This document shows positions 1,662 through 52,246 of a stretch of DNA of 64,000 bases, piece after piece. The DNA lies in contig DATHJH010000042.1 in the NCBI GenBank assembly GCA_035489815.1, positions 1,581-65,580 of the forward strand. The letters are read 5' to 3'. Made by a program: the position numbers and the translations under genes. The notes beneath the pieces were generated by a model. It was not told the DNA's origin. It made no database searches and saw only the letters and a list, made by a program, of their open reading frames with translations. This DNA comes from Candidatus Limnocylindria bacterium. GTDB taxonomy: Bacteria; Patescibacteriota; Saccharimonadia; Saccharimonadales; JAGQNK01. Every line of letters starts with the position of its first letter. The stretch's first letter is position 1.

Positions 1662-2345
1662 GGCTAACTGCCAATTTATTCGCTGGGGTTATAGGTCCGT
1701 GCCAAACACCAACTCCTCCGGCAAATCAATTCTTTGCTTTTTCATGGCGGCATAGATCCCGGAAGCCGTTAGCCGAAGATCCAACCTTTTGCCACCTTCG
1801 TGACCCAACACGTTTGCCAATTCCCCTGAAATCTCCTGACGCTGCTCCGTGGCAGTAAGCGCAGCCCCGCCGGAAGCATATGGATCGATGTCAAGATCTA
1901 CGCCCAGGACATTCAGCAACCGATCACCCTCTGCACTCAGCCAAGTTACGTACCCCTTCGTCTAACACAATCCTCACTGCATTCTCCCCAGACCACAGCA
2001 AGACTCTGGCTCCGGGAGGGCGATCACCAGTTCCTTGGATCGTGACCGACAGATTCGTGTCCGGTCTCGCACCCATAGGGCCAGATGCATGCATAAATAG
2101 CTCTTTTGCCAGGGGCTATAAACATATTGGGCACTTCTGGGTCTTTCGACACTTTTCTAATAGAGGTTATCGTTTTCCCTCCCAGATTTTGGATACCATG
2201 CACCTCCCGGCCATCACCCATAAAGACAAAAAAATTTGTACTCTAAAAGTGTCCGGCCGGACACTTTTAGAGTACAGCGAAAGGTATCAAACTTGAAAAG
2301 TGACGCACAGTGGGCTGTAATGAGGATGTAAAAAGGAGGCCATGG

Positions 2346-3164: not shown

Positions 3165-3521
3165 ATGATTATCGAGCTGCTGCGCTGGTGGTATGGCCCA
3201 GGGTGGATTCTGGCGTTCAAGCGGATAAACACCCGCACGGCGAACGTCGCCCACGCCTTTTCAGCAGGTACTTTGCTCAAAACACTTTTTGCCCCGTGGA
3301 AACGCATCCAGTACACCGGCAAATCTTTTGACGCCAAGATGCATGCCATGATGGACAACCTTGTGTCCCGCACCGTTGGCTTTGTTGTCCGCCTGTTTGT
3401 GCTGATTGCGGCGCTGGTGATGATTGCCGGCAGCGTACTGCTTAGTACCGCCATTGTTGTAGCCTGGCCACTGGTGCCGCTGTTGATTATATTCAGCCTT
3501 TTCAGGGGAATTGCCGGATGA
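3165..3521 (+). CDS. small membrane protein (118 aa)
   Basis: The ORF has two long hydrophobic segments (VGFVVRLFVLIAALVMIAGSVLL, IVVAWPLVPLLIIFSLF). TACAAT at 3153-3158 lies 6 nt upstream of the ATG. The gene is directly followed by the Clp-like ATPase gene. Confidence 0.6.
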   Translation: MIIELLRWWYGPGWILAFKRINTRTANVAHAFSAGTLLKTLFAPWKRIQYTGKSFDAKMHAMMDNLVSRTVGFVVRLFVLIAALVMIAGSVLLSTAIVVAWPLVPLLIIFSLFRGIAG

Positions 3522-21839: not shown

Positions 21840-24800
21840 GTGATGTCAGATTTTGCCAGGGAGTACAAACGGCTCAACGCCATGCAGAAAAAAGCCGTGG
21901 ACGCCACGGAGGGTCCGCTATTGGTCATTGCCGGTCCCGGCACAGGAAAAACACAGCTGCTCAGTGCCCGCGTAGCCAACATTTTGAAGCTGACAGACTC
22001 GTTACCCAGCAGCATACTCTGCCTTACTTTCACCGAAGCGGCGGCGCTGAACATGCGCGAACGCCTGCGGAGCATGATCGGTGAAGACGCCTACGGTGTA
22101 CATATAAATACATACCACAGCTTCGCCAGCGACATCATCCGCGCCAATCCTGATTTTTTTGAAACCGTCGACCTCCTGACAGGAGCAGATACTCGCATGG
22201 AGCGGCCAATCAACGACCTGGGCCAACTGGAAATCGTCAAAAGCATAGTTTACGGACTACCATTCACCGACCCGCTGCGCGGAGCACGGTATTACCTGAA
22301 AAGTGTCGTATCGACCATATCGGATCTGAAGCAGGCCAACATAGACCCAGAGAAGATGCGTGCCATCGCCAAGGATAACGCCCGGGTTTGCCTGGAACTG
22401 TCGCCGCGCATCCATGACCTGATGTCGCCTCATACACGCATGCCCGGCAAAGCCGGGGCGGCGCAGCAACTGTTTACGGGCTTCCGGAATGAGCTGGCAT
22501 CGGCCCAGGGCGAACTGGCCGACGCGGCCCTGAAAGAGCTGGACCGTGCGCTGGAATCTTCTGCCGAAGCCAACTCCACAAAACCGTTGACCGCCTGGAA
22601 GAACAGCTGGCTGCAAAAGGACGATACTGACCGGTGGTGCTTCACCAATCCGGCCGTCAACGATCGACTGCTGTCGCTGGCGACGATTTATGAAAAGTAC
22701 CAGGAAATACTTGAATCAACCGGCCAATATGATTTCAACGATATGATTCTGCGCACATTAAAAGCCCTGCAGGAAAAGCCGGAGCTCAAGTTCAACCTGC
22801 AGGAACAGTACCAGTACATCCTGCTGGACGAATTCCAGGACACTAATGCCGTCCAATTTGAACTCGTGCGGACGCTGGCCGACCATCCGGTTCACGAAGG
22901 CCGCCCGAACATCATGGCCGTCGGCGACGACGACCAGGGTATCTTTGCTTTTCAGGGTGCCGACATCGGCAATATGATCCAGTTTTTAGCCGCTTTCCGG
23001 GACGTAGAGGTCATAAATCTGGTCCAGAACTACCGCTCGCACCACGACATCCTGCACGTCGCCCACAACATTGCGGAGCAGATAGAATCGCGCATACATC
23101 ATTCGCTTGACGGTGTCACCAAAAACATTGAAGCCGCAGCAAGCGACCTGCCTGACAACGCGACTATAGCCCGGCACGAGTTCACTTCGGCCGCTGCTGA
23201 AAACGGCTGGATCGCCGATCAGATCGCAGAGCAGATTGAGAATGGCGTGCCAGCGCACGAAATCGCCGTACTGGCGCCTAAGCATGCCGTCCTGGAAACG
23301 CTCGTACCGTTTTTAAACAAACGGGGCATCCCGGTCACCTACGAAAAGCGCGAAAACATCTTTGAAACACCCGTCGTGCAGACAATCCTGCTGATGTGCG
23401 AGCTTTTGCGCGCCACAGCCAGAGGCGACCACTCCCTTATGGACCAGCTGCTGCCGAGGGTTCTGAGCCTGGATTTCTGGCAGATTCCGATCGAAACAAT
23501 CTGGCAGCTAAACTGGGACCACGCCCGCCAGCACCAGGAAGATACCAAACGCTGGGTCGAACGCACAGTATCGCTGCCGCGCACGGCCGAGCAAGTCAAG
23601 TTCCTGTTGCGTCTGGGCACCAACAACGAAACTTACGGTTTAGAATTGACACTCGATTATCTTACCGGTGCAAAACCGCTGCAGTACGACCACGCCAGCT
23701 ACACCTCGCCGTTGAAGCAGTTTTATTTTTCCGATTCAGCACTTAAGGATTCGTCGCTTCAGTTTTACGAGGCTATTTCGCACCTTTCCGTCATCCGCGC
23801 CCAGCTGCGCGAACAGCAGGCAAGGGAAGATCACCGCCTTGATATAGACAGTCTGCTGGATTTGTATGAGACTTACCAGGAAGCCGAGCAGCCGCTCATC
23901 AACACCCACCCGATCGCTCAGGCCGAATCGTCCGTGCAGCTGCAAACCGTTTACAAGGCCAAGGGCCTGGAATACGAGCACGTATACCTTACCAATTTGC
24001 AGGACGATGTGTGGGGCAGCACCGCCAAGGGCGGTAGCAACAAGCTGTCCATCCCAGCCAATCTGAAGCACATCCGGCACGATGCCTCCACCGAGGACAC
24101 GCTGCGCCGGCTGCTGTTCGTGGCTGTAACCCGCGCCAAACACGGTCTTGTACTGACCAGCCACGCCCAGTCCGAGTCAGGCAAAAAGACCCAAGCCGTC
24201 AAATACCTGCAGGAATTCGAAGAAAACGACCAGCATTACAGCGGCGTATTGCCGGATGGCGCAAACCGCATATTCATGACCGACCGCGAGCCCGAACAGC
24301 TGCAGAACGACGTCGACACACTGTGGCATAGCCGCCACACCGAACTGACGCCGACGCTCAAGAGCCTGCTGGGCGAACGGCTTGAGCGCTACGTCATGAG
24401 CCCGACCCACTTGAATACGTTCACTAACGTTGAATATTCCGGACCAATGGACTTCCTGCTTGGTCCGCTGCTACGCTTTCCGAAAGCCCCGACCGCCGAC
24501 AGCGTTTACGGCGACGCCGTGCACCGGGCGCTGGAGCAGTACCAAAAATCCTGGAAGGATGGCCGGGGAATCAGCATAGACCAAGCCATTGGCATTTTTG
24601 AAGCCCGGATGGAGCGCGGCTTTTTGTCAGACGTTGATAGAAAAGCTTTCACTGAGCGGGGCAAACGCGCCCTGCGGACTTATCTTGCCAAAAACGGCGA
24701 AAGACTGCGCCGCCCTGCCGAGGTAGAATTTGATTTCCGCCGTGAAGGCTGCGTGTTCGACCAGGCAGTATTGACCGGCAAAATGGACCGCCTGGAAGTC

Positions 24801-25169
24801 AACCAGGCCGACAAAACCGTGCGCATCATCGATTTCAAAAGCGGAAGCCCAAGCGCCAAATGGGGCAGCGACGGCAAGCATATCAACTACAAACAGCAGC
24901 TATATTTTTACAACCTGCTGATCGAAACGTCGCGGACATTCAAGGGTTATAAGGTCAACAGCGCGGCGCTGGAATTCATCGAACCGCTGCCGAACGGTGA
25001 ATCCGCGCCACCACTGGAGCTAAGGTTCGACCAAAAAGAATATGACGACTTCAAAAGACTGCTGCTGAACGTCTGGCAGCGCATTCATAACCTGGACCTG
25101 CCGGATATCTCTGGCTACCCGGCCAGTGCAACCGGCGTTCGGGCATTCATAAAATACCTGCTGGCCTAA
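21840..25169 (+). CDS. UvrD/PcrA/AddA-type SF1 helicase fused to a C-terminal PD-(D/E)xK (RecB/Cas4-like) nuclease domain
   Basis: LVIAGPGTGKTQ (Walker A), ILLDEFQDTN (motif II), VGDDDQGIFAFQGA, NYRS and VYKAKGLEYEHVYL are SF1 helicase motifs. The C-terminal MDRLE...RIIDFKSG...YKQQLYFY resembles the RecB-family nuclease motif. Confidence 0.85.
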   Translation: MMSDFAREYKRLNAMQKKAVDATEGPLLVIAGPGTGKTQLLSARVANILKLTDSLPSSILCLTFTEAAALNMRERLRSMIGEDAYGVHINTYHSFASDIIRANPDFFETVDLLTGADTRMERPINDLGQLEIVKSIVYGLPFTDPLRGARYYLKSVVSTISDLKQANIDPEKMRAIAKDNARVCLELSPRIHDLMSPHTRMPGKAGAAQQLFTGFRNELASAQGELADAALKELDRALESSAEANSTKPLTAWKNSWLQKDDTDRWCFTNPAVNDRLLSLATIYEKYQEILESTGQYDFNDMILRTLKALQEKPELKFNLQEQYQYILLDEFQDTNAVQFELVRTLADHPVHEGRPNIMAVGDDDQGIFAFQGADIGNMIQFLAAFRDVEVINLVQNYRSHHDILHVAHNIAEQIESRIHHSLDGVTKNIEAAASDLPDNATIARHEFTSAAAENGWIADQIAEQIENGVPAHEIAVLAPKHAVLETLVPFLNKRGIPVTYEKRENIFETPVVQTILLMCELLRATARGDHSLMDQLLPRVLSLDFWQIPIETIWQLNWDHARQHQEDTKRWVERTVSLPRTAEQVKFLLRLGTNNETYGLELTLDYLTGAKPLQYDHASYTSPLKQFYFSDSALKDSSLQFYEAISHLSVIRAQLREQQAREDHRLDIDSLLDLYETYQEAEQPLINTHPIAQAESSVQLQTVYKAKGLEYEHVYLTNLQDDVWGSTAKGGSNKLSIPANLKHIRHDASTEDTLRRLLFVAVTRAKHGLVLTSHAQSESGKKTQAVKYLQEFEENDQHYSGVLPDGANRIFMTDREPEQLQNDVDTLWHSRHTELTPTLKSLLGERLERYVMSPTHLNTFTNVEYSGPMDFLLGPLLRFPKAPTADSVYGDAVHRALEQYQKSWKDGRGISIDQAIGIFEARMERGFLSDVDRKAFTERGKRALRTYLAKNGERLRRPAEVEFDFRREGCVFDQAVLTGKMDRLEVNQADKTVRIIDFKSGSPSAKWGSDGKHINYKQQLYFYNLLIETSRTFKGYKVNSAALEFIEPLPNGESAPPLELRFDQKEYDDFKRLLLNVWQRIHNLDLPDISGYPASATGVRAFIKYLLA

Positions 25170-27713: not shown

Positions 27714-29433
<1,720 letters not shown>

Positions 29434-29599
29434 TTTTGAATTGCCTCCATACTCATCGCATTCATCTTAATCATTGATCACCATCCTCTCGCCCCAAGTT
29501 GTCAAGGGACCTCTCTTTCAAGCGGCGGCCAAGATCCAGCTCAAATTCGCTTTGCTGAGTCCATAGTTTGAAAGGGTTTTTCCATTCCATTATTTTTTC

Positions 29600-29941
29600 C
29601 TATCCACCCCAGTTACCAGTAAAATTGCGCATTACTCTCTCGGCCTCAACATCTGTTCTATTCTCTACCGCCATCTGAATGCCTTGTTCGTATGAAACTA
29701 CAATCTCACGGGCAATTTGCAAGGCTGCCCAGTCTAATGCCTCGGGCGTCATTACTCGATCTTCAGCTAAGGCATTCTCAAGGATACTGGTAGCATCAAC
29801 TCTGTGTTCTTCAAACCTCGCCACCATAGCACCTTCGTAGGCTGCCCGATCGTCCGAACCAAAAGCCTCTATCCAGGGCTGGACTTCACGATCGCCAATA
29901 GGACTTTGGCCTAAATTCAGTCCATCAGTTCCTTCGGTCAT
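29600..29941 (-). CDS. acidic ORFan (113 aa) embedded in the atp operon
   Basis: The ATG overlaps (ATGA) the stop of a relic copy of the atpG 3' end. The GGAGG inside that relic lies 7 nt upstream. Confidence 0.55.
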   Translation of the reverse strand: MTEGTDGLNLGQSPIGDREVQPWIEAFGSDDRAAYEGAMVARFEEHRVDATSILENALAEDRVMTPEALDWAALQIAREIVVSYEQGIQMAVENRTDVEAERVMRNFTGNWGG

Positions 29942-29947
29942 TTTATA

Positions 29948-29980
29948 GCCTCCGCGCCGCCGGTTATTTCTGCTACTTCC
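29948..29980 (-). repeat. relic duplicate of the atpG 3' end (encodes EVAEITGGAEAIK*)
   Basis: 31 of 33 nt are identical to 30552-30584, the real atpG C-terminus (ELAEITGGAEAIK*). Confidence 0.85.
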
Positions 29981-29984
29981 GGCA

Positions 29985-30545
29985 TCATGGATACAATAAC
30001 TCCTCTTTGATTTTTGCTATATCCCTGCCAACATAAATGACGTGCTTGATTTCGAACAATTCTCTAATGGCTGGAGTCATTGCAACACGCCGACTAGGAT
30101 TAGGGTGGGCAGTTTCAAAAGACTTGACCTGCAACGGGTCTGTTTGGGTAAACACTGGCTTCTCGCCTACTTCTCTGACGTGACTAATGTTGCCCACATC
30201 CCATGGGAGGGGGGAGTCGTATCGTGGGGTGTGCGGACCTACTGTAGATAACTCCGGGAAACGATCGACGACCCTCTGCTGTCTGTCGTTAAGTTTTTCA
30301 CGGCGTACTATAGGGTTGGCGTTGTACACTGCAACCACCAGAGCATGTATATCATCTCCCTCCATGACCTCATGCCATAGGCGAAGATCGTCCGAGGTGG
30401 GGTACGGAGGATTGTCAAGTGGCATGACGTCGATACCAAAGCGATTCGGTACATAGCCCGTCCAGCTCTCCATGACACTCCCATCATCTGAACGGGGGAC
30501 AGATAACGCCACGGTTACTCTTTCTGAGTCTGGAATCTTATTCAC
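29985..30545 (-). CDS. ORFan (186 aa) embedded in the atp operon, bracketed by the atpG 3'-end duplication
   Basis: GTG 30545 overlaps the atpG stop (GTGA), with GGAGG 7 nt upstream. No motif recognised. Confidence 0.55.
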   Translation of the reverse strand: MNKIPDSERVTVALSVPRSDDGSVMESWTGYVPNRFGIDVMPLDNPPYPTSDDLRLWHEVMEGDDIHALVVAVYNANPIVRREKLNDRQQRVVDRFPELSTVGPHTPRYDSPLPWDVGNISHVREVGEKPVFTQTDPLQVKSFETAHPNPSRRVAMTPAIRELFEIKHVIYVGRDIAKIKEELLYP

Positions 30546-31411
30546 TTGATGGCCTCCGCGCCGCCGGTTATTTCTGCCAGTTCCTGGGTGATTGCTGCCT
30601 GGCGGGCGGTGTTAAAGGCCAGGGTCAGGTCGTCTATCAAATCGGATGCGTTGTCGGTGGCATTTTTCATGGCCATCATGCGCATGGATTGTTCTGATGC
30701 AAAGCTCTCCAGGATAGCCTGCCAGATCTGGACCTCAATCAGCCGCAGTGCCACGCTGTCCAGCACTTCTTTGGGCGAAGGTTCCAGCGTGACATTATCC
30801 AGGCTATGGGCGTCTTCGTCGGTTTCCTCAAAACTGGCCGGCAACACCTGCAGGGCAGAAGCAATCTGGACAAGGTTGGACTTGAACTCGGTATAAAGCA
30901 GCTTGACCTCGTCCACGAATCCTTCAGCATACTGTTCTGTAATGGTATTCAGCAGTGGCCGCAGGTCATTGGCATCCGGCTGATCGCCAATGTCGTTGTA
31001 AACAGCCAATAGCTCTACGCCCTCCAGGGTGCGGACAAAGTTGGCACCTTTTTTGCCGATGGTTATGACCTTGGCGCTCACACCTTTGGCCTGGTCCTCA
31101 CGGATGGCTCGGGTTAGGCTTTTTAAAACATTGGTGTCATATGCGCCGGCCAAACCCTGGTTACTGGTGACAACCACATACAAAGCACGCTGTATGTCAC
31201 GCCTGGTAAACAGCGGATGGTCTTCTACATCTGTAATCTTGCTGAGGCGGGTCAGCAGGGAATAGGCTGCAATGCGATAATTCCGTGAACGCTGAGCAAA
31301 TTCCTGCGCCCGGCGCATTTTACTAGCCGCCACCAATTCCATGGCCTTAGTAATCTGCCGAGTGTTCTTGACTGAACCAATTCGTCGCTTCAGCGTAATC
31401 GTATTAGCCAT
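30542..31411 (-). CDS. atpG: F1 ATP synthase subunit gamma
   Basis: The ORF track gives 30542-31477. ATG 31411 yields MANTITLKRRIGSVKNTRQITKAMELVAASKMRRAQ, the canonical gamma N-terminus. The C-terminus is ...ITQELAEITGGAEAIK. Confidence 0.92.
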   Translation of the reverse strand: MANTITLKRRIGSVKNTRQITKAMELVAASKMRRAQEFAQRSRNYRIAAYSLLTRLSKITDVEDHPLFTRRDIQRALYVVVTSNQGLAGAYDTNVLKSLTRAIREDQAKGVSAKVITIGKKGANFVRTLEGVELLAVYNDIGDQPDANDLRPLLNTITEQYAEGFVDEVKLLYTEFKSNLVQIASALQVLPASFEETDEDAHSLDNVTLEPSPKEVLDSVALRLIEVQIWQAILESFASEQSMRMMAMKNATDNASDLIDDLTLAFNTARQAAITQELAEITGGAEAIK

Positions 31412-31754
31412 CAATATCTCCAGCCTGGCCGTCGATAATTCGCTGCATAAACTCAGCCAGACAGACCTCTCTGCCAATCAGAGTTCTGGTAGAAGTAAGC
31501 GTTGGGTCTGGGTCAGATGTCAAACTCCCGTCAAGCAACAGCCCGAGTACATGGCCGACATTACCCTGATTATGCGTAAGATCGTTTTCTATTGCGCCCG
31601 ACTCCACCAAGCTTACCTCAAGGATGGCCCCGAGCTGCGTGGCTAATTTGTCGTCCGGCATAACGGCAAAGTATTCTTCCATACCCGCTCTGTAAGTCTG
31701 AATGCGAGGATCTTCCCGCCAATTTTCAGCTGGTGGTTGCATGGGACTTGTCAC
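31404..31754 (-). CDS. acidic ORFan (116 aa) between atpA and atpG
   Basis: GTG 31754 lies 2 nt after the atpA stop (an internal ATG is at 31742). Its stop overlaps the atpG start by 8 nt. No motif recognised. Confidence 0.5.
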   Translation of the reverse strand: MTSPMQPPAENWREDPRIQTYRAGMEEYFAVMPDDKLATQLGAILEVSLVESGAIENDLTHNQGNVGHVLGLLLDGSLTSDPDPTLTSTRTLIGREVCLAEFMQRIIDGQAGDIDG

Positions 31755-31756
31755 GA

Positions 31757-33334
31757 TTACTTATTTGCCTTTGCTTTCATATCCTTAACTGGTTCTTCAT
31801 GAATATAGCTGGCGGCTACTTTTTGGGCGGTGTCCAGGATGGTTTTCTTACCTTCGTCGTCAGGAGCGTCACCTTTGTTCAGATTAGCAACCAGTTTCTT
31901 TTGTTCGTTCTTGAGTTCGCGCAGCAGGTTGGCCTCTGCTGTTTTGACCTTATCGAGTGGTACTTTGTCGAATGCCCCTTCGATAGCTGCGTACAGTACC
32001 GCGTACATTTCCCAGACGCTGAGGGGGCTGAACTGCGGTTGTTTGAGCAGTTCGGTCAACCGCTGGCCGCGTTCAATGCGCTGGCGGGTGTCAGCATCCA
32101 AGTCGGTAGAGAACTGGCTAAAGGCAGCTAGTTCGCGGAACTGGGCCAGGTCTACACGCAGACCCTTGGACACGCTTTTGACAGCCCTGGTCTGGGCATT
32201 GCCACCCACACGGGACACAGACAGGCCAACAGAAATAGCTGGGCGAATACCCTGGTAGAACAGGTTAGTCTCGAAGAAAATCTGACCGTCGGTAATGGAA
32301 ATCACGTTGGTCGGGATGTAGGCACTAATATCACCCGCCTGGGTTTCGATGATTGGCAGGGCAGTCAGGGAACCGGCCCCCAGGTCGTCAGACAATTTGG
32401 CTGCCCGTTCCAGCAGGCGTGAGTGCAGGTAAAAGACATCACCCGGATAGGCCTCTCGCCCGGGTGGGCGGCGCAGCAGGAGGGACATTTGTCGATAGGC
32501 GGCGGCATGCTTGGACAGATCGTCATAGATGATCAGGGAGTGTTGTTTGTTATCGCGGAAATATTCACCCATGGCTGAACCGGCATAGGGGGCCAGGTAC
32601 TGTAAACTGGCCGGGTCGGCGGCAGACGTCGCAACCACAATGGTCTGGTCCATGACGCCTTCGCGCTTGAGGCGCTCTACCAAACGTGCGACTTTGCTCA
32701 GTTTCTGGCCAATGGCTACATATATATTAATGACGCCGGTTTCCTGGCGGTGCTGGTTGATCATGGTATCTACCGCCACGGCTGTTTTACCGGTCTGACG
32801 GTCACCAATCAGCAACTCTCGCTGGCCGCGGCCAATCGGCACCATGGCGTCTATGGCAGTGATGCCTGTCATAAGTGGTTCATGCACGCTCTTGCGGTCC
32901 AGCACGCCGGGGGCGGGGCGTTCCACACGGCTGGTCCGGGTGGTTTTGATTGCACCCTTGCCGTCCAACGGCTGGCCAAGCGGGTTGACCACACGGCCGA
33001 CGAGCTCTGGACCTACTGGCACTTCCAGCACCTTGCCAGTCAGCTTTGCCTTGGCACCGGCTTTGACGACAACGTCATCACCCAGCAGCACCGCGCCGAT
33101 CTCGTCCTCACCCAGATTAAAGGCAAAAGCCGTTACTGCTACGCCGTCAGTAGCCTCTAGCTCTATCATTTCCGAGTAGCCGCAGGTGGTCAGGCCGTAA
33201 ATCCAGGCCACGCCGTCACCAACACGCGTTACCACACCAACGTTTTCTATTTCCGGCCGGGACTTTAGCTGGGTAATAGCCGCGCGGATGTCTTCTGATA
33301 ATTCTTTGATGGAGATATTGTCCATGGAGCTCAT
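31757..33334 (-). CDS. atpA: F1 ATP synthase subunit alpha
   Basis: GDRQTGKTA (Walker A) is present, and the sequence looks alpha-subunit-like along its full length (525 aa). Confidence 0.97.
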
Positions 33335-44369: not shown

Positions 44370-45371
44370 ATGGCTGCGATGCTATATGGGGTAGACATGA
44401 GTAGACTTGCCAGAATTATTGCACTCCTTCGACTGACGACTCTGAGCGTCATTCTTTTTATAATGAGCAGCGCTATTGGGGCGGCATTGTATGTAAACGG
44501 CAATGTACAGCAGCTTTCGGGAGAACGCTTTAATCAGACGGTTGACCGGCTGGACACGCACATCCTGGAACGGATGGGCAACTATGCCGACCTGCTGTAC
44601 AGCAGCCGTTCCTACGCAGTCAGTACCACTCAGGTGACCCAGGAACAATGGAATGCCTTTTTCCGTAACCAAAGCACCTTTGACCGGCACCCGGGCATTA
44701 GTACCGTGAGTTATCTGCGGTTTTTCAACAACGCCCAGAAGTCGGACTTTCTACGGCAGATGCAGGCCCAACCGTACTTTGGCGGTAAAAAGTTTGCCAT
44801 TCGCCCGGCCGGTACCCGCGACCGCTATGCAGTTATCCAGTATGTCAGCACCAATAACGACGTCAAGGGCACGTTTGGTATTGACTCCTACGCCGGTCGG
44901 CCGCAGCGACAGGCCATGGACACAGCGGTAGGGACCGGTTTGCCCCAGGCCACTGAACTGTTTACCCTGGGCAGCGGAAAAAAGGGCTTTGCTATTTTTT
45001 TGCCGGCTTATAAAAACGATGCTGTGGACGGGTTTAGCATGATCAGCTTTCGAACCGAGGACTTTATAAAAGCCCTGTTTACCTACCCCGAACCGCATAT
45101 GCGCTATAAAATTGCCGATGTATCCGATCGTAGTGCACCGCAGGTGTTGCACCACTCAGCCAATTGGCAGGACGGGCTTGATCTGGAGCGAAAAGACACC
45201 ATAGACATCATGGGCCGCCAATGGGAAGTTACTTTTGCTGCCGACAGCAGCTATAACGTCAGTATGCATGCCCGGATTTTGCCGGTGCTGATTGTGCTGG
45301 TCGGCGTACTGCTGATCGCTCCAGTCCTGATTGCCTTTCGCAAACTTACCGGGGCAGGATCAAGTTCTTAA
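44370..45371 (+). CDS. CHASE-domain membrane protein without an output domain
   Basis: An N-terminal TM helix is followed by a ~230-aa periplasmic-type domain fitting the CHASE pattern (WNAFF...HPGISTVSYLRFF...YAVIQYVS...GIDSY...PQATELFTL...FAIFLPAY). A second TM helix follows and the protein then ends after about 15 aa. Confidence 0.6.
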   Translation: MAAMLYGVDMSRLARIIALLRLTTLSVILFIMSSAIGAALYVNGNVQQLSGERFNQTVDRLDTHILERMGNYADLLYSSRSYAVSTTQVTQEQWNAFFRNQSTFDRHPGISTVSYLRFFNNAQKSDFLRQMQAQPYFGGKKFAIRPAGTRDRYAVIQYVSTNNDVKGTFGIDSYAGRPQRQAMDTAVGTGLPQATELFTLGSGKKGFAIFLPAYKNDAVDGFSMISFRTEDFIKALFTYPEPHMRYKIADVSDRSAPQVLHHSANWQDGLDLERKDTIDIMGRQWEVTFAADSSYNVSMHARILPVLIVLVGVLLIAPVLIAFRKLTGAGSSS

Positions 45372-45834
45372 CCCGCAGCAGCCTGCGAAGGAACCGAAAG
45401 CGCAGGGTAGGCACTGCGGCTGTGATAACCACCGGAGCAACAATAATAGCAGTTACCGATGAATACGCCGGATTGCTGACAAAGGCCCGCCCCGCCCGGG
45501 TCATACGGACCAGAGGATTGTTGGCGTTCCGGCTGTCAGTATCCGGCCGTACCTGCGTTTGAGTGAGACGGGCACCAGACGGCACTGCAGCCGCCACCGT
45601 GGTGGGCACCCGGACGAGGGGGTCTGAACCTGCATGCGGTACCTCACCAATCACCGGACCGCACTCTGCCGGAGAAAGATAGGTAAGGTCGCTGCTGCCA
45701 TCACTGACCTGTTCGAACAAACAGCTCAGAGGCGCAACCTCCAGCCGTGCCTCTGAATCAACAGCACCGACCACAGGCGCAGTCACCACGCCCAAGCAAA
45801 CCAGCAGCCCGGTGATCACAAGGAGACTTTTCAT
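45346..45834 (-). CDS. small surface protein (162 aa): signal peptide plus C-terminal hydrophobic/basic anchor
   Basis: MKSLLVITGLLVCLGVVTAPVVGA forms the signal. The C-terminal VTAIIVAPVVITAAVPTLRFRFLRR looks like a membrane anchor or sorting signal. Its ATGA overlaps the stop of the 852-aa gene. Confidence 0.55.
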   Translation of the reverse strand: MKSLLVITGLLVCLGVVTAPVVGAVDSEARLEVAPLSCLFEQVSDGSSDLTYLSPAECGPVIGEVPHAGSDPLVRVPTTVAAAVPSGARLTQTQVRPDTDSRNANNPLVRMTRAGRAFVSNPAYSSVTAIIVAPVVITAAVPTLRFRFLRRLLRVKNLILPR

Positions 45835-48392
45835 CAGTTTGCCGTTACCGTCACCGTTAAGTTGAGGTTATAGGTCCCGGCTGGCTGCTCCGGCGGCACC
45901 TTTTGGGACGCGCCAACGCCTACGATATCCCAGTAGCAGTTGGTATTCGCACCAGAGGCAGAAGCAAGAGTCAGAGAATTGAGTGTGCCCTGAGCAAATG
46001 CCGCCAAACCGCCCAGGGAAATACCAGTGGCCGAACAACCGCTCTTTGGCGTAATAGTGGCAGTCGAGGGGTTTAGACTCAATTGGCCGGCCTCTCCGCT
46101 GTCTGCGTCTACGCCGTCACTACACCCGGCCGGGGAACCGGCGGCATCGTTGAAGTCGTAGTTGACACTGCCGGTACTCCACAAGGATGTATCGCCGCCG
46201 GTTGCCGCAACGGTCAACGACCAGTTGGGGCTGCCGGTGGTATTCGTGACCCGCACTTTCTGGCTGGAAGTACCTAACGTACCGGTGGGGGTAGTGCAGG
46301 CAAAGCTCAGCCCGCTGGACGACATGCTGACACCAGGGCTACTCACCCCGCAGCCGCTGCTGTCCACAATGTCCACGCCCAAAATACCCGTGCCGGGCGA
46401 CCGCCAGGCGGCATAGCGGTAGGTACTGCCGCTGACGTTTGTCTCCGCCGATGTCGTGGTGACTGAAAAGCCGTTGCAGATCAGGGCCGTGATCCGGTTG
46501 GTGGTGTTAGCCGTGTTGGCAAAATGCTGCGTCGCATTGCCAGCCAGCGAAGCCCCCCTGTGGACTCCGGTAGAGTTGGTAGTGCGTTTTACCCACACCA
46601 GATCCGGCTGGAAGCCCGCAGTTGTAATGTTTTGGGCTGCACCGGTGCCGCTGTAGCTGCCAACAGCAAAGTTGTCGCCGTTTTTAAACGCAAACCAGTG
46701 ATACAGATTGGCAGCGGCGTTGACAGTAGCGTCCGTTCCAACCTGGTAGCCGTCAGTCGTGAGGGCTTGCACACGATTAGCCCCCTCGGCCGTTGCTCCA
46801 AAGAACCCGGACAAATCACCGGCCATGGCCGAGGTCCGAAAGGTGCCGGCCGATGCCCCGCTCCTTTTGGCAGTCACCATATTTGGCTGGAAGGGCAGGC
46901 GGGTAATGTTGCGGCTGTCTATGCCGTTGCCATAGTAGGCGCCAATGGCAAAGTCGGCCGCGCCGGTGTTGGTGTAGGGGTCAAAGCCGCCAGCAAAGGC
47001 TTGCCACTGGTAGGTGTTGGCAGAGGTATTCACAATGGTGCTGGCACCCACCGTAAAGCCACCAGCGTCCAGAGAAGTAATCCCCCCGGTAAAATTGGCT
47101 GCTGCGTTAGAAAAATAGGCTGTACTGTTGCCGGCCATCAACCCCGTCCGAAACACCGAATAATTAGCAGCATTGTCTTTTATAATCACCAGTTCCGGCT
47201 GAAAGCCAAGTCCGGCAACAGACTGACCTGTACCGTTGCCGGTATAGGTGCCTGTTTCCATCTGAAAACCGCCGCTGACCGAATAGGCGGCAGCACCCCC
47301 AAAAGCCACCCAGTAAAATGTTGCCCCCGTTTCGTTCGTTTGGGCAGCCGTGCCCACCTGAAACCCATCGCTTTGCAAAGCCTGAACGGCATTTACCAGA
47401 TTGGCCGTTGCCGCACCTACAAAAGAAGAGCTATCGCCATAAGACTCCGGCCGGTTCATAACCGGGTCGCGGCTGGCAACGGTCGCCGAGGTAGCGTTTT
47501 TGACCATCACCAGGCTGGCCTGGAATCCCACGCCCGTAATGTTCCGGTTATCGGTGGCGTTGCCAGTGTAGGTGCCCTGGCTCATGCCTCCGGCCGTAGC
47601 CTTGAAGGCCACATAATAAAAGACGCCGGTGCTGGCGTTGTCCGTCGCCCCCACGTCAAAGCTGGTGGCCGCAAACGATCGAATATAGTTACCGGCCGTA
47701 TCCCTGGCTGCTGTAGTCAAAAACAACGTTTCGTTAGCCGGCTGGGACGCCACCCGGAAATGCCCGGCCACGGCAGTGGAGCGTTTGACCATCACAAAAC
47801 TGGGCTGAAACCCAGTCGTAATGGTCCGTGTGGCCGCTGCATTACCGGTGTAGCTACCAACGCAGTAATTGCCGGTGGCACTACAGTCAGAACCGGTGAA
47901 GGCCGTCCAGTAGTACAGCGCGTTGGCGGTATTTACGTTCGCCAGTGTGCCTACCGTAAAACCATCGGCCGTAAAAGTGATGTTCGTACCAGTATTGTCT
48001 GCTGCGGCACTGCTAAACGCCGTGGCGTTAGCAGGCATGGCCGACGTTTTAAAGACCATCACCCCGGCGTTGGTACTGGATTTGATCATCACCGTACTTG
48101 GTTGAAAACCAAGCCCCGTAATGGTCCGCCCAGCCACGCCCGTACCCACGTAGTACCCGCTTTGCATGGAAAAGTTAGCTGCCTGGGCTTTGTTGGTCAG
48201 GGTCGGTACCGTCGGTGCATCATTGGCACCCTCATCCACTACCCGTGAATCATGCAGCGACAGGTACAGGTTGTCGACAATCTTTGACTCATTCCATTTG
48301 GTAATCAGCATGTCGGCGGGGAAACCAAACAACAGGTTACTGACGACAATCAGTGCCGCCAGGCCTACTCTCAGAAGAGTGCTATTTTTCAT
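45834..48392 (-). CDS. 852-aa surface protein: N-terminal anchor, six ~95-aa repeats, C-terminal WxL-like domain
   Basis: Six repeats are marked by GFQP-x-(L/F)V-x-(I/V)K (GLGFQPSTVMIK, TGFQPSFVMVK, GVGFQASLVMVK, GLGFQPELVIIK, LPFQPNMVTAK, AGFQPDLVWVK). The last ~190 aa are paralogous to the 237-aa protein (NWSLTVAATGG...YNLNLTVTVTAN). Confidence 0.8.
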   Translation of the reverse strand: MKNSTLLRVGLAALIVVSNLLFGFPADMLITKWNESKIVDNLYLSLHDSRVVDEGANDAPTVPTLTNKAQAANFSMQSGYYVGTGVAGRTITGLGFQPSTVMIKSSTNAGVMVFKTSAMPANATAFSSAAADNTGTNITFTADGFTVGTLANVNTANALYYWTAFTGSDCSATGNYCVGSYTGNAAATRTITTGFQPSFVMVKRSTAVAGHFRVASQPANETLFLTTAARDTAGNYIRSFAATSFDVGATDNASTGVFYYVAFKATAGGMSQGTYTGNATDNRNITGVGFQASLVMVKNATSATVASRDPVMNRPESYGDSSSFVGAATANLVNAVQALQSDGFQVGTAAQTNETGATFYWVAFGGAAAYSVSGGFQMETGTYTGNGTGQSVAGLGFQPELVIIKDNAANYSVFRTGLMAGNSTAYFSNAAANFTGGITSLDAGGFTVGASTIVNTSANTYQWQAFAGGFDPYTNTGAADFAIGAYYGNGIDSRNITRLPFQPNMVTAKRSGASAGTFRTSAMAGDLSGFFGATAEGANRVQALTTDGYQVGTDATVNAAANLYHWFAFKNGDNFAVGSYSGTGAAQNITTAGFQPDLVWVKRTTNSTGVHRGASLAGNATQHFANTANTTNRITALICNGFSVTTTSAETNVSGSTYRYAAWRSPGTGILGVDIVDSSGCGVSSPGVSMSSSGLSFACTTPTGTLGTSSQKVRVTNTTGSPNWSLTVAATGGDTSLWSTGSVNYDFNDAAGSPAGCSDGVDADSGEAGQLSLNPSTATITPKSGCSATGISLGGLAAFAQGTLNSLTLASASGANTNCYWDIVGVGASQKVPPEQPAGTYNLNLTVTVTAN

Positions 48393-49353
48393 AACCTTCT
48401 ACGTAGGTATGCGCTTCCTGGGAAATCTGCTTCATGATGGCCTGGGCTTTGGCTTGATCATGCTTTTTGATCATGACGGTTAGCAGGTAAGGGCGATCGA
48501 GCAGGTAGACAATGCCGGAGTCCAGATAGTTTTTCTCCACGTTGTCTTCGCCGATCTTGTGCGAAAAGGCTGTGCCCTGCGGCAAACCAGCCGGTAACAT
48601 CCGGTTGAAAGGTGTTTGATTGAGCTGGTCCAAAATATACTGCGACCCGCTTCTTTTGAGGAAGCTGGAATTATACAGAGCGCGGAAGAGCCGGGAATAT
48701 TCCTTGGCAGAAACCTCGCTTTTTTCATCAAACAAGTCGTCCAGGCCTAGAGCGTCCTTTAACTCGCCCAGCTCTGTTTCTGACAAATTGCGCATGAGCA
48801 TCCGGTGAGCAGTGTTGTCGGACTGCGTTAGAAGCGCCTGCACTAGTTCCTGAATGGAAAAGCTGGTACCGACCGGTTTTTGATAGAGGGAACCGTAGCG
48901 CTGGTCCTTGTCCTGTTCAAACAGCACCAACCGGCTGTCCATGTGCCATTCGCCCTTTTCCACTTTTTTCATGGCTACCAGAGCGCTGGGCAGCTTGACC
49001 AAACTGGCGGGGTAAAACCTGGCTGTGTTGTTGATCTGAATGTTGGCACCGGTATTGAGGAACTCAAAGTACACGGAAATCGTATCGGCACCATCTTTTT
49101 CCACGATTTGGTTCAGCTTTTCGCGCAAGGGCTGGATGTTGACGATGAAGTGTTCTTGTGGAATGTAGTTCCGGGCAATATCAATAAAAGGGTATTTTTC
49201 GGCGGCCTTTTTTGCACTGTCGTCCCCGGACCCGCGTATCAGAAAACCCGCCGTCACGATGTTTGTTAGCAGCAACACGGCAAAAGCGGTGATAAACACC
49301 TTGGGACGAACGATACGCCGCTTGCGTGAAGCTGGTGGGTTATCGGCAGCCAT
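48382..49353 (-). CDS. class-A beta-lactamase-fold serine hydrolase (membrane-anchored)
   Basis: Contains S-x-x-K (PASLVKL), SDN (LTQSDNTAH) and a KxG-like HKIGE motif, plus an N-terminal TM helix. Confidence 0.7.
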   Translation of the reverse strand: MAADNPPASRKRRIVRPKVFITAFAVLLLTNIVTAGFLIRGSGDDSAKKAAEKYPFIDIARNYIPQEHFIVNIQPLREKLNQIVEKDGADTISVYFEFLNTGANIQINNTARFYPASLVKLPSALVAMKKVEKGEWHMDSRLVLFEQDKDQRYGSLYQKPVGTSFSIQELVQALLTQSDNTAHRMLMRNLSETELGELKDALGLDDLFDEKSEVSAKEYSRLFRALYNSSFLKRSGSQYILDQLNQTPFNRMLPAGLPQGTAFSHKIGEDNVEKNYLDSGIVYLLDRPYLLTVMIKKHDQAKAQAIMKQISQEAHTYVEGYEK

Positions 49354-49361
49354 GCACTGGC

Positions 49362-50537
49362 CTACTTTTTAGTTCTATTTTTAGTTCTAGAGGCCGACGG
49401 CTTGTCCTTTAGAATCTTGAGACGATAGCCTGGCTTGACGTGGTAGGGTGCCTTTAGGTGATTGACCCGTACGATAGTCTTCCAGGGCAGTCCGTAGGCT
49501 TCGGCAATGGCCTGAATATTTTCTCCTTCTTTTGCCACGTGCAGAGCGCCGTGCTTATGCCAGTGGTTCCGTGTTCGATGCCTGCGAATAAAAATACCTG
49601 CGCCAGCAACAACCAGGGCCAGGGAAGCCAGTTCAATGACTGCCGCCAAAGGTTTTGGACTAACAAGTAGCAAGCGCTTTTTACCAACGCTAGCCTTTTG
49701 GCCATCCCGGCCGATGCCTGCCGCCGGGTCAGGGTTGTAGGTTGCCTTTGCGCTGATCATATAGACACCGCCCCAGAAGGGTTCAGTCATATCAAAATTA
49801 AATTCGCTTTCGCCGCCAGCCAAGATGGGGAATTCGCCGCCGCTTTTGCGGACCGTGGTACCTAAGATAGTCTTGAGCCGGACATCTACGTCAGTATCCA
49901 GGGACACGTTACCGCTGTTTTTCAGTTGTGCGGAGACTATGTATTTGCCTGCGTCCCGCCGGCTATCCAGCCTACTAAAAAACAACCCCTTTTTGATGTC
50001 GCCCTTTACAGTTACCGCCACCCGGATGGCCGAACGAAAGGACAGGGCAATGCCGTTACCTGCAGCGGTCGGTGTCTGATTAGCCTCTTGGATAACTATG
50101 CAGCCGTTATGTTCGCCGCCCGCCGTACCGCCAGGCACTGCCAGCGTAAAAGGCACCTCCCGTTCACCGCCAGCCGGCAATGTGACCTTGCCAGTGCTCA
50201 AGCGAATCCACGCACCAACAGAACCGGGTTCATCCACTTTTTGAGCGCAGGCAAAGGCTCCGCCGCTTGATGCCTGCGAGTCAACACCGTAGACGTCTAT
50301 AGTTTTTTGTTTGTCGCTGTTGTTGTAGATCTTTACAGCATTGGTGGCTACTTGGCCAGCATCTACATCAAAGACAAATATAGATTTGGTGCGTGAATTG
50401 TTGGCATCCGGACGAGCAGGCTTGCCGCCAATCCCGCCAGATTCCACTGCGCCCGCCGAAGGCACCCCAAGCACCAGGGGAGCTAGAAAGACAACCCCCA
50501 CCAGTAGCCGAGAAAATTTGTAGCGTATGGCAGGCAT
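49362..50537 (-). CDS. DUF916/DUF3324-like cell-surface protein with a TM anchor and C-terminal LysM domain
   Basis: The ORF track gives 49362-50651. ATG 50537 yields a signal peptide (MPAIRYKFSRLLVGVVFLAPLVL). IFVFDVDAGQVATNAVKIYNNSDKQKTIDVYGVD fits the DUF916 pattern I know from WxL clusters. It also has the TM helix LAAVIELASLALVVAGAGIFI and the LysM-like segment HVAKEGENIQAIAEAYGLPWKTIVRVNHL. Confidence 0.6.
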   Translation of the reverse strand: MPAIRYKFSRLLVGVVFLAPLVLGVPSAGAVESGGIGGKPARPDANNSRTKSIFVFDVDAGQVATNAVKIYNNSDKQKTIDVYGVDSQASSGGAFACAQKVDEPGSVGAWIRLSTGKVTLPAGGEREVPFTLAVPGGTAGGEHNGCIVIQEANQTPTAAGNGIALSFRSAIRVAVTVKGDIKKGLFFSRLDSRRDAGKYIVSAQLKNSGNVSLDTDVDVRLKTILGTTVRKSGGEFPILAGGESEFNFDMTEPFWGGVYMISAKATYNPDPAAGIGRDGQKASVGKKRLLLVSPKPLAAVIELASLALVVAGAGIFIRRHRTRNHWHKHGALHVAKEGENIQAIAEAYGLPWKTIVRVNHLKAPYHVKPGYRLKILKDKPSASRTKNRTKK

Positions 50538-50545
50538 GGCCAATC

Positions 50546-51247
50546 CTACTGTGCAGTTGCCGTCAATGTCAGGTTGAGGGTATAAGAATCTGCAGCCTGT
50601 TCGGCCGGAATTGTCTGTGAAGCAGTGACGCCCGTGAGGTATCCGCGCCATATGTCATTTGAGGTACCGCCAGCATTAACCAAAGTGATACTGTCCAATG
50701 TGCCTTGGTTAAACCCGGCGCTAGAACCAACACTAACGCCAGTCGTATTACAAGACGCACAGTCCGTCGTAATAGCACCGACCGAAGGGTTGACGGTGAG
50801 CTGGCCAGGTGTGGCATCGGCGTCACCGGCAACATCAGTACAGCCAGCTGTCGTACCAGTCGGGTCGTTAAAGTCAATGTTCTGCGTTGCACCACCGTTT
50901 GCCCACCGTGCAGTGGCGCCTCCGGTGGCGGCCAAGGCCAGCGTCCAGCCGTTGTCCGCACCATCCGTGTTTGTAACATACACGCGTTCCGTGCCAGTTC
51001 CGAGGGTTCCGGTAGAAGCACTACCGCCTGCCTGACATTCAAAGGAAAAGCTCTTAGCAGACATTGCCACTGCCGGACTGGCAACCGGCACACGACTGGC
51101 GTCCATAATATCCGTAGCCAAGGTGTTACCGCCGCTAATAACCTGGCTAAAGGTAGAGTTAGATGCCGCGTATACCGCACTGCTACCAGCAAACACCATA
51201 ACCACCGCCAATGCGATCGCCTGTTTTAATAAAGCAGTTTTTTTCAT
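50546..51247 (-). CDS. WxL-like secreted surface protein (233 aa)
   Basis: GAGGGGG precedes ATG 51247, and a signal peptide is present. NGWTLALAATGG (a WxL motif) and the C-terminal YTLNLTLTATAQ resemble the two-motif WxL domain of Firmicutes. It is paralogous to the C-terminus of the 852-aa protein. Confidence 0.6.
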   Translation of the reverse strand: MKKTALLKQAIALAVVMVFAGSSAVYAASNSTFSQVISGGNTLATDIMDASRVPVASPAVAMSAKSFSFECQAGGSASTGTLGTGTERVYVTNTDGADNGWTLALAATGGATARWANGGATQNIDFNDPTGTTAGCTDVAGDADATPGQLTVNPSVGAITTDCASCNTTGVSVGSSAGFNQGTLDSITLVNAGGTSNDIWRGYLTGVTASQTIPAEQAADSYTLNLTLTATAQ

Positions 51248-51466
51248 GTTCCCCCTCAAATCCCCTTCATACCACTAATTACTCTAGATAGTAGCAGTCG
51301 CGCTTATGTTTGTAAATTAACTTACAGATTTTTCTGTTTTTTTGTGCATTTCCCGCCAGTTTACAGATACACAACTAGCAAGCTAGAGCAGCGGAGTTCT
51401 TTCCCTCAGTTAGCAAGCCAAGCTTAGCATAAGCAAAAAAGAAAGAGCAGATCTAAAATTACATAA

Positions 51467-51554: not shown

Positions 51555-51836
51555 ATGCCCAAAGAAAAGCGTACATATGCAGACAGAAGAGAGTACTTTA
51601 TTATGGCGGTTTCAAAACGCCGCCGCAGGATTAAAGAAAAAGCGATCGAACTCCTAGGCAGCAGGTGTCAAGTGTGCAGATATGACCGCTATCAGGGAGC
51701 CTTGATTTTCATCACGTTGACCCAAGCACAAAAGAGCTTCGGCATTAGCGGCAATGGGCACTCCCGGTCATGGGAGCGAGTAAAAGAAGAACTAGCCAAG
51801 TGTGTACTGGTTTGCGCCAACTGTCACGGGAGATAG
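51555..51836 (+). pseudogene. decayed small HNH endonuclease gene
   Basis: The ORF stays open but reads ALIFITLTQAQKS where an alternative frame of 51704-51736 reads DFHHVDPSTKE, the expected HNH block. After CANCH the expected REI.AGL tail is again in another frame (stop at 51881-83). Confidence 0.65.
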
Positions 51837-51906: not shown

Positions 51907-52246
51907 TCCGGAGTAGCTCAATGGTAGAGCGATTGGCTGTCAGTTGGCAGCGCACCTGAGTAATCAGGTGATGAAAACAGGGTGAATTGCAGGAAACCTA
52001 CATCCTCGCAGAGGACACGGCAATCTGCAGCCAAGCTAGAAAGAGCAAAAGTTCATTAATGAACTGAGGTTTTCTAGAAGGTTCAGAGACTAGGGAGTGA
52101 GACTCAACGATAATCTCCCCGCGAGCGCCCTGCATCCTACGTAGCTTTATGCGAAGGAGGATGATGAAATAGTCCACGCTCCTGCGAAAGCAGAAGGTCT
52201 AAGTGTAACCAATAGGTTGCCGGTTCGAGTCCGGCCTCCGGAGCCA
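51907..52246 (+). tRNA. tRNA-Asn(GUU) interrupted by a group I intron (exon 1 51907-51940, exon 2 52206-52246, CCA encoded)
   Basis: The joined exons give a canonical cloverleaf: acceptor UCCGGAG/CUCCGGA, D arm GCUC-AAUGGUA-GAGC, anticodon arm AUUGG-CUGUUAA-CCAAU, T arm GCCGG-UUCGAGU-CCGGC, discriminator G73 and CCA. Confidence 0.8.
51941..52205 (+). ncRNA. group I intron (265 nt, no ORF), probably of the tRNA-intron (IC3-like) type
   Basis: P1 forms between exon GCUGU and intron GCAGC with a U.G pair at the splice site. P10 forms between intron GUUG and exon-2 UAAC. Other marks are a P2 hairpin with a GUAA loop (51953-70), AGAGACUA at 52085-92, a GAAA-capped hairpin at 52182-93 and a terminal G at 52205. 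Confidence 0.75.

Follow-up and report, generated by a model that had tools for sequence, protein, structure and literature searches.

A compact operon of five minus-strand genes, p1 to p5, was identified at positions 45346-51247 of the 64,000-nucleotide stretch of contig DATHJH010000042.1 analysed here (the window), and it could be read as a Saccharibacterial surface-display operon built on the plan of the WxL/Csc clusters in a highly divergent form, a reading to which we give a probability of roughly 60%. It is carried by p2, which by profile alignment is a homologue of the WxLIP proteins, by a domain that p1 shares with the C-terminus of p4, and by the recurrence of these three genes together in other genomes. 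Signals for secretion or membrane anchoring are present in the products, and a hydrolase of the Beta-lactamase2 family is encoded between p2 and p4. The cluster probably displays an adhesin, and we infer that it may serve as a host-attachment apparatus.

WxL/Csc clusters are known from Lactobacillales, Listeria and Enterococcus, and more than 91% of the known WxL sequences come from Bacillota (PMC9772566). They comprise a small WxL protein consisting of the domain only, a large WxL protein with the domain at its C-terminus behind adhesin-like domains, and a WxLIP with DUF916, DUF3324 and a transmembrane (TM) helix (Hassan & Williamson, PMC9772566, PMC10599100). One WxLIP with two WxL proteins is the commonest type (PMC10599100), and most clusters also carry an LPxTG protein. 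In the Csc naming, the small WxL protein is CscB (Swp), the large one CscC (Lwp), the WxLIP CscA and the LPxTG protein CscD (Siezen 2006, PMC1534035; PMC9772566, PMC10599100). An acidic Swp and a basic WxLIP of L. plantarum have been described in the literature. A literature search found no paper mentioning WxL together with Saccharibacteria.

The genes of the operon, and a promoter-like site about 40 nt upstream of p1, were as follows.

50546-51247, minus strand: p1, 233 amino acids (aa); hypothetical protein in the public record (HTE22814.1)
49362-50537, minus strand: p2, 391 aa from the ATG of the public record; named LysM peptidoglycan-binding domain-containing protein (HTE22813.1)
48382-49353, minus strand: p3, 323 aa; named serine hydrolase in the public record
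45834-48392, minus strand: p4, 852 aa; hypothetical in the public record
45346-45834, minus strand: p5, 162 aa; hypothetical in the public record
51288-51316, minus strand: promoter-like site TTTACA-17-TACTAT with a TG extension, by consensus match only

The products p1 to p5 correspond to HTE22814 to HTE22810 of the public contig, which belongs to a metagenome-assembled genome. An earlier note, made from the letters of this DNA, had described five co-directional genes with overlapping or near-abutting ends, and the junctions agree with it: gaps of 8 nt separate p1 from p2 and p2 from p3, p3 and p4 overlap by 11 nt, and p4 and p5 by 1 nt. The order it gave for the genes differed from the actual one, which is p1-p2-p3-p4-p5. 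The open reading frame (ORF) of p2 stays open back to 50651, which would give 429 aa. A GGGGG ribosome-binding site lies immediately 5' of the p1 ATG, and matches to the promoter consensus were no commoner in the region than in shuffled sequence.

The p2 protein is basic (pI 10) and is composed of a signal peptide, two immunoglobulin-like (Ig-like) domains, a TM helix and a LysM tail, which were placed as follows.

50088-50420, minus strand: first domain, WxLIP_PGBD (DUF916); PF06030, 32.3 bits against a cut-off of 27.3
49728-50087, minus strand: second domain, counterpart of WxLIP_HBD (DUF3324) by hhalign alignment with canonical WxLIP
49587-49652, minus strand: TM helix (PLAAVIELASLALVVAGAGIFI), residues 296-317, followed by RRHRTRNHWHKH
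49413-49541, minus strand: LysM domain; PF01476, 33.6 bits, E 3.6e-8

For comparison, canonical clusters were fetched from metagenome contigs by a relaxed WxLIP motif, giving 23 non-redundant small WxL proteins and 10 WxLIP proteins. The p2 family was aligned to these 10 WxLIP by hhalign with a probability of 97.6% and E 3.2e-12 over 230 columns. The alignment runs through canonical WxLIP residues 25-278, so both the PGBD and the HBD are covered, and on this profile evidence p2 is a genuine WxLIP (CscA/DUF916-like) homologue. A precomputed PF06030 match was present in most of 120 listed p2 homologues, and the homologue from an oral Nanosynbacter locus (L064, described below) scored 34 bits. 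Of the DUF916/DUF3324 pattern proposed in the earlier note, DUF916 was found above the gathering score; PF11797 (DUF3324) gave no match in p2 at E<=1, the second domain being covered by the profile alignment. A TM helix and a LysM domain had also been taken as additions to the WxLIP plan; the LysM domain, matched by its HMM (hidden Markov model), is indeed extra, whereas the TM helix is a canonical WxLIP feature.

With canonical WxLIP, p2 has in common the signal peptide, the tandem Ig-like domains and the single C-terminal TM helix, and the N-terminal motif region could be aligned (P..NQxDK..YFDL against P..NNSRTKSIFVFDV in p2). It differs in that the NQIDKxxxYFDLK motif is only loosely retained and in that a LysM tail of about 75 aa follows the TM helix. 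Viral contigs scanned with the exact WxLIP motif pattern gave nothing. In a close metagenomic relative (L201), two ORFs upstream of the operon (2-982 and 948-2051, minus strand) were weakly p2-like in the PGBD region and the TM helix (E 1e-6 and 8e-6) and are perhaps WxLIP-like paralogues, of which the window has no copies.

The domain common to p1 and p4 was the other main component, and it was located with its WxL-like motif as follows.

45837-46433, minus strand: C-terminal shared domain of p4, aa 654-852, counterpart of the C-terminal WxL domain of large WxL (CscC-like) proteins
50927-50977, minus strand: first WxL-like motif of p1 (VYVTNTDGADNGWTLALA), the sole stretch that hhalign aligns to canonical WxL

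By BLASTP, p1 was 46% identical to aa 654-852 of p4 over 216 aa (E 2e-38), which bears out the C-terminal domain that had been suspected to link the 233-aa and 852-aa proteins. The motifs named with it are also present, GWTL in p1 and NWSL in p4, together with the terminal SYTLNLTLTATAQ in p1 and TYNLNLTVTVTAN in p4. The p1 protein is secreted and acidic (pI 4.1); its signal peptide is followed by a conserved N-terminal segment (aa 28-41) and then by the shared domain of about 195 aa, and it is the counterpart of the small WxL (CscB-like) protein. No Pfam match was obtained for p1, and a Pfam domain was found in 0 of its 558 relatives in a 90%-identity collection.

A profile search of 1.84 billion representatives gave 693 clusters at 50% identity with the shared domain, which was always C-terminal, in proteins either of about 215-260 aa or large, up to 1961 aa. 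In contigs of one genome per GTDB species, a p1 relative was encoded at 144 loci, nearly all labelled Saccharibacteria/Saccharimonadales, including cultivated-type Nanosynbacter, with a few other Patescibacteria labels. The shared domain of p4 was 50-61% identical to those of large proteins from other genomes and 46% to that of its own p1; it is nearer to the foreign large proteins than to its own small partner, so the split into small and large proteins is old and has been maintained. A large family of C-terminal surface-protein domains in ultrasmall episymbionts, annotated in no database, is newly defined by these searches.

Conservation of the cluster was counted over 80 GTDB loci and the window by tblastn and HMM searches. 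Shared-domain ORFs were present in the 81 loci, with exactly two (one small, one large) in 65 and more than two in none, and a p2-family gene was found in 73. The full triad, two shared-domain ORFs with a WxLIP-like gene, occurred in 62 of the 81 loci, nearly all of them from Saccharibacteria or other Patescibacteria, and most of the other loci were truncated contigs. Synteny with Saccharibacterial loci outside the cluster was almost nil. One WxLIP and two shared-domain proteins within five genes would correspond to the composition by which WxL clusters are recognised (PMC10599100), provided that the shared domain is taken to be WxL. The phylogenetic mapping that the earlier note had called for placed the cluster plan in 144 species-level genomes across Saccharibacteria and other Patescibacteria, and in 693 clusters at 50% identity.

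The Saccharibacterial cluster resembles the WxL/Csc clusters in joining a WxLIP-family gene to the genes of a small protein made up of one domain alone and of a large protein that ends in that domain, in its acidic p1 and basic p2, in the variable, adhesin-like N-termini of the large proteins and in the small anchored protein, which carries LANTG in oral lineages. It has also kept the first GWxL motif together with the residues on either side. W101 and N93 of p1 were conserved in at least 90% of the family sequences, and the spacing of the motif is the canonical one, with a hydrophobic residue at W-10 and Asn at W-8; the canonical V-x-V-T-D-x-R-G-T-x-x-G-W-x-L has the family counterpart V-Y-V-x-N-x-D-G-A-D-N-G-W-T-L. 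Other resemblances to WxL were an N-terminal G-x-L-S-x-D strand and a C-terminal (V/I)-P...Y...L-T-[W/L] block.

Weak similarity of the domain to WxL could also be traced statistically. When a canonical small-WxL HMM was run on 1920 six-frame ORFs, members of the family made up 19 of the 29 best weak matches (hypergeometric 1.8e-15); real sequences scored above their shuffled (Mann-Whitney 6e-27) and reversed (6e-10) versions, and the alignments were colinear. The reverse test with an HMM free of the signal peptide gave 7 of 24 (p 0.003). These probabilities overstate the evidence, because the sequences counted are related and non-independent. A reverse enrichment of 57 of 81 with another HMM (A1) was discounted, since A1 includes the signal peptide.

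Against the WxL/Csc reading stand, first of all, the tests of the shared domain itself, for which the gathering score of PF13731 (25 bits) was the standard of WxL membership. PF13731 was matched by all 23 canonical proteins taken as a positive control, up to E 1e-72. Neither p1 nor p4 matched it at E<=1, nor did any of about 100 family members (sets of 37, 54 and 10) even at E<=10, and an NCBIfam scan of p1, p4 and their relatives for WxL gave no match. In hhalign, tried in local, low-mact and global modes with three family alignments, the family was aligned to the 23 small WxL proteins over only 13-21 columns at motif 1 (probability 1.5-10.8%, P 0.003-0.03), and the comparison with large WxL gave P 0.08-0.25; canonical small against large WxL gave a probability of 97.8% and E 8e-13, and unrelated pairs gave P 0.05-0.11. 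The second WxL motif is absent, its place being taken by LTL/LTV with Trp replaced by Leu, though Y222 and P214 keep the equivalent spacing. Canonical small and large WxL domains are known to differ in length and topology, unlike the single domain type that is used by both Saccharibacterial proteins, and the shared domain also has no Pro-rich linker after its N-terminal strand. Searches of the PDB with the family profile and with the fold found no WxL structure.

The sequence statistics thus do not place the shared domain in the WxL family, and the identification of it as WxL in the earlier note was not sustained, the profile-profile scores being barely above those of unrelated controls. Homology to WxL is unproven; the domain may be WxL in an extremely divergent form or may be its analogue, so the earlier interpretation is supported in part. 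It could be argued from the same negative Pfam and profile-profile tests, from the missing second motif, from the single domain type in the small and large proteins and from the lack of a significant PDB match that the domain is a Patescibacteria-specific retention domain, unrelated to WxL, which was partnered with WxLIP independently, its GWxL likeness being convergent or due to chance. We consider this unlikely, as the position, the partner and the composition of the cluster are identical to those of WxL, the flanks of motif 1 are identically spaced, the conserved blocks are colinear, and the weak matches are enriched over shuffled and reversed controls.

The remaining part of p4, which would be the outward-facing part of a displayed protein, consisted of repeats.

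46434-48191, minus strand: N-terminal region of p4, six DUF7483 repeats of about 100 aa, each with a Y(T/S)GNG...GFQP...V.(V/I)K core

The region was matched by DUF7483 in Pfam (E 2e-37) and, in six stretches each, by the PHROG families of a tail fibre (phrog_24898, E 2e-48) and a virion structural protein (phrog_19943, E 8e-37), so that the repeat module is common to a cellular surface protein and phage fibres. It is probably the ligand-binding part of p4. The N-terminal regions of the large proteins vary by lineage, with DUF7483 in few, RCC1 repeats in oral Saccharibacteria and fn3 elsewhere, as would be expected for ligand-binding modules, and such lineage-variable candidate adhesins could contribute to host range.

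Downstream of p4, p5 begins with a signal peptide and ends in a hydrophobic stretch with a basic tail, just as it had been described from the letters. No LPxTG-like motif was present in its sequence and no Pfam family matched it; its place in the cluster is that of the small anchored (CscD-like) protein. Homologues of p5 follow the large gene in L201 and in two further loci (L202 and L030), at 32 of 62 loci the product of the gene after the large one has a signal peptide together with an anchor at its C-terminus, and in oral Saccharibacteria it carries a LANTG sorting signal.

The serine hydrolase p3 was matched by PF13354 (Beta-lactamase2; 134 bits, E 4.8e-39) and has an N-terminal membrane anchor and the catalytic motifs SLVK (SxxK), SDN and KIG, in agreement with its first description as a membrane-anchored hydrolase of the class-A beta-lactamase fold. 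The best solved relative was Tll2115/PBP-A (2j7v, E 5.7e-18 over aa 63-315). PBP-A of Thermosynechococcus elongatus is a DD-carboxy/endopeptidase with a class-A beta-lactamase fold (PMC11189452). With it p3 shares SxxK, SDN and a short region in the place of the omega loop, and it differs from it by KIG in place of KTG and by the membrane anchor. From these motifs and this match, p3 is a probable PBP-A-type DD-peptidase. A true class A beta-lactamase was rejected, as bla_class_A scored 88.9 bits against an NCBIfam cut-off of 200 and the omega-loop region, in the alignment with PBP-A, is shortened by gaps and lacks the ExxLN motif of Glu166.

The same five genes, with the same order and overlaps, were found in close metagenomic relatives (L201, L202 and an 82-kb contig). 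In another relative (L204), p3 and p4 form one unit beside a divergent unit of p1 and p2. A chance insertion of p3 had been considered from its absence in the GTDB loci, and it was dropped after this five-gene operon turned up in the close relatives; p3 is thus a subclade-specific addition whose translation is coupled to that of the large protein. In a Patescibacteria genome further removed (L205, 8001-13470), a p3-like hydrolase gene overlaps the start of a gene for a 1490-aa fn3 protein without the shared domain, and the pairing of PBP-A-like enzymes with large surface proteins may be a more general one.

Counterparts of the operon were found in oral Saccharibacteria. In Nanosynbacter sp. 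TM7-075 (L064, 4739-10467), a large RCC1-repeat protein is followed by a 237-aa LANTG protein, a small p1 homologue, a WxLIP-like protein without LysM and a LiaF-like membrane protein, and the same cluster order was seen at other oral loci (L053-L080). The small protein, at 41% identity, is a homologue of p1, the large protein ends in a homologue of the p4 C-terminal domain, and the WxLIP-like protein is a homologue of p2. The composition of SEML1_0625-0628 of Southlakia epibionticum matches that of this locus. SEML1_0626 is listed as 'DUF916 domain-containing' with two Ig-like domains, and it is flanked, together with SEML1_0627 (188 aa), by a 1284-aa RCC1/fn3 protein and a small protein with a best match to an LPXTG-anchor protein (Wang et al. 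2023, Cell, Table S2). The top Foldseek match of SEML1_0627 bore the name 'WxL domain-containing protein' (0.854), the one indirect pointer to a WxL fold. Both clusters resemble the operon of the window in having a large RCC1/fn3 protein, a small protein of about 190-220 aa, a DUF916-like protein with two Ig-like domains and a small LPXTG-anchor-like protein. They differ from it in having neither a LysM tail nor a PBP-A-like gene, in RCC1 in place of DUF7483, in the presence of the LANTG signal and in the gene order, which is large, LANTG, small, WxLIP.

Some of the points that count against the surface-display reading come from these accessory genes and oral counterparts. In all 61 members of the p2 family examined, LysM comes after the TM helix and a markedly basic stretch, the mean net charge being +0.9 before the helix and +5.6 over the 15 aa beyond it; by the positive-inside rule, this charge asymmetry would place the LysM of p2 in the cytoplasm, and a LysM so predicted is an ill fit to a simple wall-binding role. 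The p2 homologues of oral Saccharibacteria end in a short basic tail only. In the cluster of all 80 GTDB representative loci p3 was absent, so it is not a core part. In S. epibionticum, the WxL name on the Foldseek match of SEML1_0627 may be a language-model label, and the orthology of the SEML1 genes to p1 and p2 is putative, resting as it does on annotation, order and size. By transposon-insertion sequencing (Tn-seq) of S. epibionticum in co-culture with Actinomyces, SEML1_0623-0628 were all non-essential and insertions in SEML1_0625 conferred a growth advantage (Wang et al. 2023), so the cluster is not required for epibiotic growth there.

This dispensability, together with the LysM and WxLIP_PGBD of p2, the PBP-A-like hydrolase p3 and the LiaF-like gene adjoining the cluster in L064, would suit a module mainly for maintenance or remodelling of the cell wall, the secreted proteins of which were structural wall or S-layer-like components and not adhesins. 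Such a role is very unlikely in our view, since most lineages have no p3 in the cluster, the LysM is predicted to be cytoplasmic and is lacking in oral lineages, and the N-termini of the large proteins (tail-fibre-like, RCC1, fn3) are highly variable, as is usual for binding proteins but not for wall enzymes.

A role in complex carbohydrates was proposed for the csc clusters of L. plantarum (Siezen et al. 2006, PMC1534035), and the counterparts of CscA, B, C and D, as well as the glycosyl-hydrolase-like and glycosyltransferase genes near the operon in L201, might be taken to indicate an extracellular complex for carbohydrate capture and use. No glycoside hydrolases, sugar transporters or regulators are encoded inside the operon and the neighbourhood outside the cluster is unconserved, which makes this function highly improbable.

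A structural model of p1 was obtained with AlphaFold2 from an alignment of 85 sequences and gave an all-beta sandwich (pLDDT 92.8, pTM 0.82). A former model from a shallow alignment (pLDDT 61.5) was set aside, its Foldseek matches being meaningless. Foldseek searches of the PDB and BFVD with the confident model gave no significant match; the best PDB matches, all non-significant (E 0.046-0.3, TM-score 0.3-0.48), were CanA of cannulae (9h8b; E 0.046, probability 0.89), CsuA/B (6fqa_B), the ETEC type I pilus (9iug), the Csu pilus (7zl4) and the type 1 pilus. A conserved segment after the signal peptide, N-x-x-L-x-Q-x-I, is confined to the small proteins; the model leaves it unstructured, and the domains of the large proteins lack it.

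As donor-strand subunits were at the top of these matches, the operon could be imagined to encode a donor-strand-complemented fibre, in which p1 polymerises through its N-terminal segment, p4 is the tip adhesin (compare FimH and CsuE) and p2 is a membrane-tethered, PapD-like cap or base anchor, that is, a monoderm analogue of chaperone-usher pili or archaeal cannulae. The ECOD domain e6fjyB1 is, we take it, the CsuE chain of the CsuC-CsuE complex, and e4b0mM4 presumably the Caf1M chaperone. DPAM assigned SEML1_0627 to the former and domain 1 of SEML1_0626 to the latter (Wang et al. 2023), and a WxLIP strand is predicted by AlphaFold2 to complete the WxL sandwich in Enterococcus, both of which would fit a fibre, as would the restriction of the N-terminal segment to the small proteins. 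In the logic of its parts the cluster also resembles chaperone-usher pili and cannulae, with a domain-only subunit, an adhesin ending in the subunit domain and a partner of two Ig-like domains. It differs from them in that there is no usher or other assembly platform among its genes, the organism is monoderm, the partner is membrane-anchored and the TM-scores reach only 0.3-0.48. Moreover, every Foldseek match was non-significant (E >= 0.046), the monomer was predicted with confidence and with no strand obviously missing, and the gene for the small subunit is single, so we regard a fibre as distinctly unlikely. Its extension from the Saccharibacterial cluster to the WxL/WxLIP clusters of Gram-positive bacteria, which would likewise be monoderm donor-strand fibre systems, is no less doubtful; a literature search found no relevant paper joining WxL with donor strand. 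If true, a fibre would mean a class of surface filament so far unrecognised, by which episymbionts reach their hosts.

For a surface-display operon on the WxL/Csc plan, the products could be arranged as follows. The p2 protein would be exported and held in the membrane of its own cell by the C-terminal helix, with the two Ig-like domains exposed in the wall zone, and p1 and p4 would be secreted and retained at the surface through the beta-sandwich domain of about 195 aa, in place of a WxL domain. On the model of what AlphaFold predicts for WxLIP and WxL in Enterococcus, the shared domain may dock onto p2 by beta-strand complementation, or bind the wall non-covalently, or both. The p4 repeats would point outward and bind a ligand, most plausibly a glycan or a surface structure of the host bacterium. 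In its subclade, the membrane-tethered p3 might trim peptidoglycan stem peptides locally, and p5 would be a small membrane-anchored accessory protein at the CscD (LPxTG) position.

If this reading is accepted, the WxL cluster plan would reach beyond Bacillota into Saccharibacteria and other Patescibacteria, and the Saccharibacterial form would differ from the known clusters in its host phylum, its LysM tail on the WxLIP and its inserted PBP-A-like hydrolase. WxL and WxLIP may then be ancient in monoderm-type envelopes, or they may have been exchanged between epibionts and their Gram-positive hosts. The putative orthologous clusters in cultivated, transformable Saccharibacteria (Nanosynbacter, Southlakia) make the reading testable. 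Its weight is tempered by the dispensability of the putative orthologues in the one Tn-seq data set and by a function that is deduced throughout.

The relatives of p2 and p3 were from Saccharimonadales, Dojkabacteria, Pacebacteria and 'Patescibacteria group', and together with those of p1 they support the assignment to the candidate phyla radiation that the earlier note had considered. As the relatives are almost all Saccharimonadales or other Patescibacteria, the public label Candidatus Limnocylindria (Chloroflexota) looks like a binning error, and the public 91,338-bp contig was, judging by these relatives, probably mis-binned. A close relative of the operon was located on a 646-kb contig with a TrbL_3 gene. 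The window also encodes the alpha and beta subunits of F1F0 ATP synthase (27714-33334, minus strand), a ClpB/ClpA-like ATPase (3511-6060, plus strand) and a PcrA/UvrD-type helicase (21840-25169, plus strand), which could be used as phylogenetic markers for the contig.

Adjacent to the operon, a CHASE-domain membrane protein is encoded convergently (44370-45371, plus strand), its gene sharing 26 nt with the 3' end of p5. The association recurs in L204, where the gene immediately after that of the large protein, and on its strand, is a CHASE gene. On the other side of the operon, a tRNA gene (51907-52246, plus strand) is split in the anticodon loop by a group I intron, which was matched by Rfam RF00028 at 51931-52196 (81.2 bits). 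No tRNA was reported in the window by the default run of ARAGORN, and its intron option gave tRNA-Thr(TGT) with a 265-nt intron, Leu(TAA) being also possible depending on the splice site. Just upstream of this tRNA gene, a 93-aa ORF (51555-51836, plus strand) ends in a CANCH motif resembling that of HNH nucleases.

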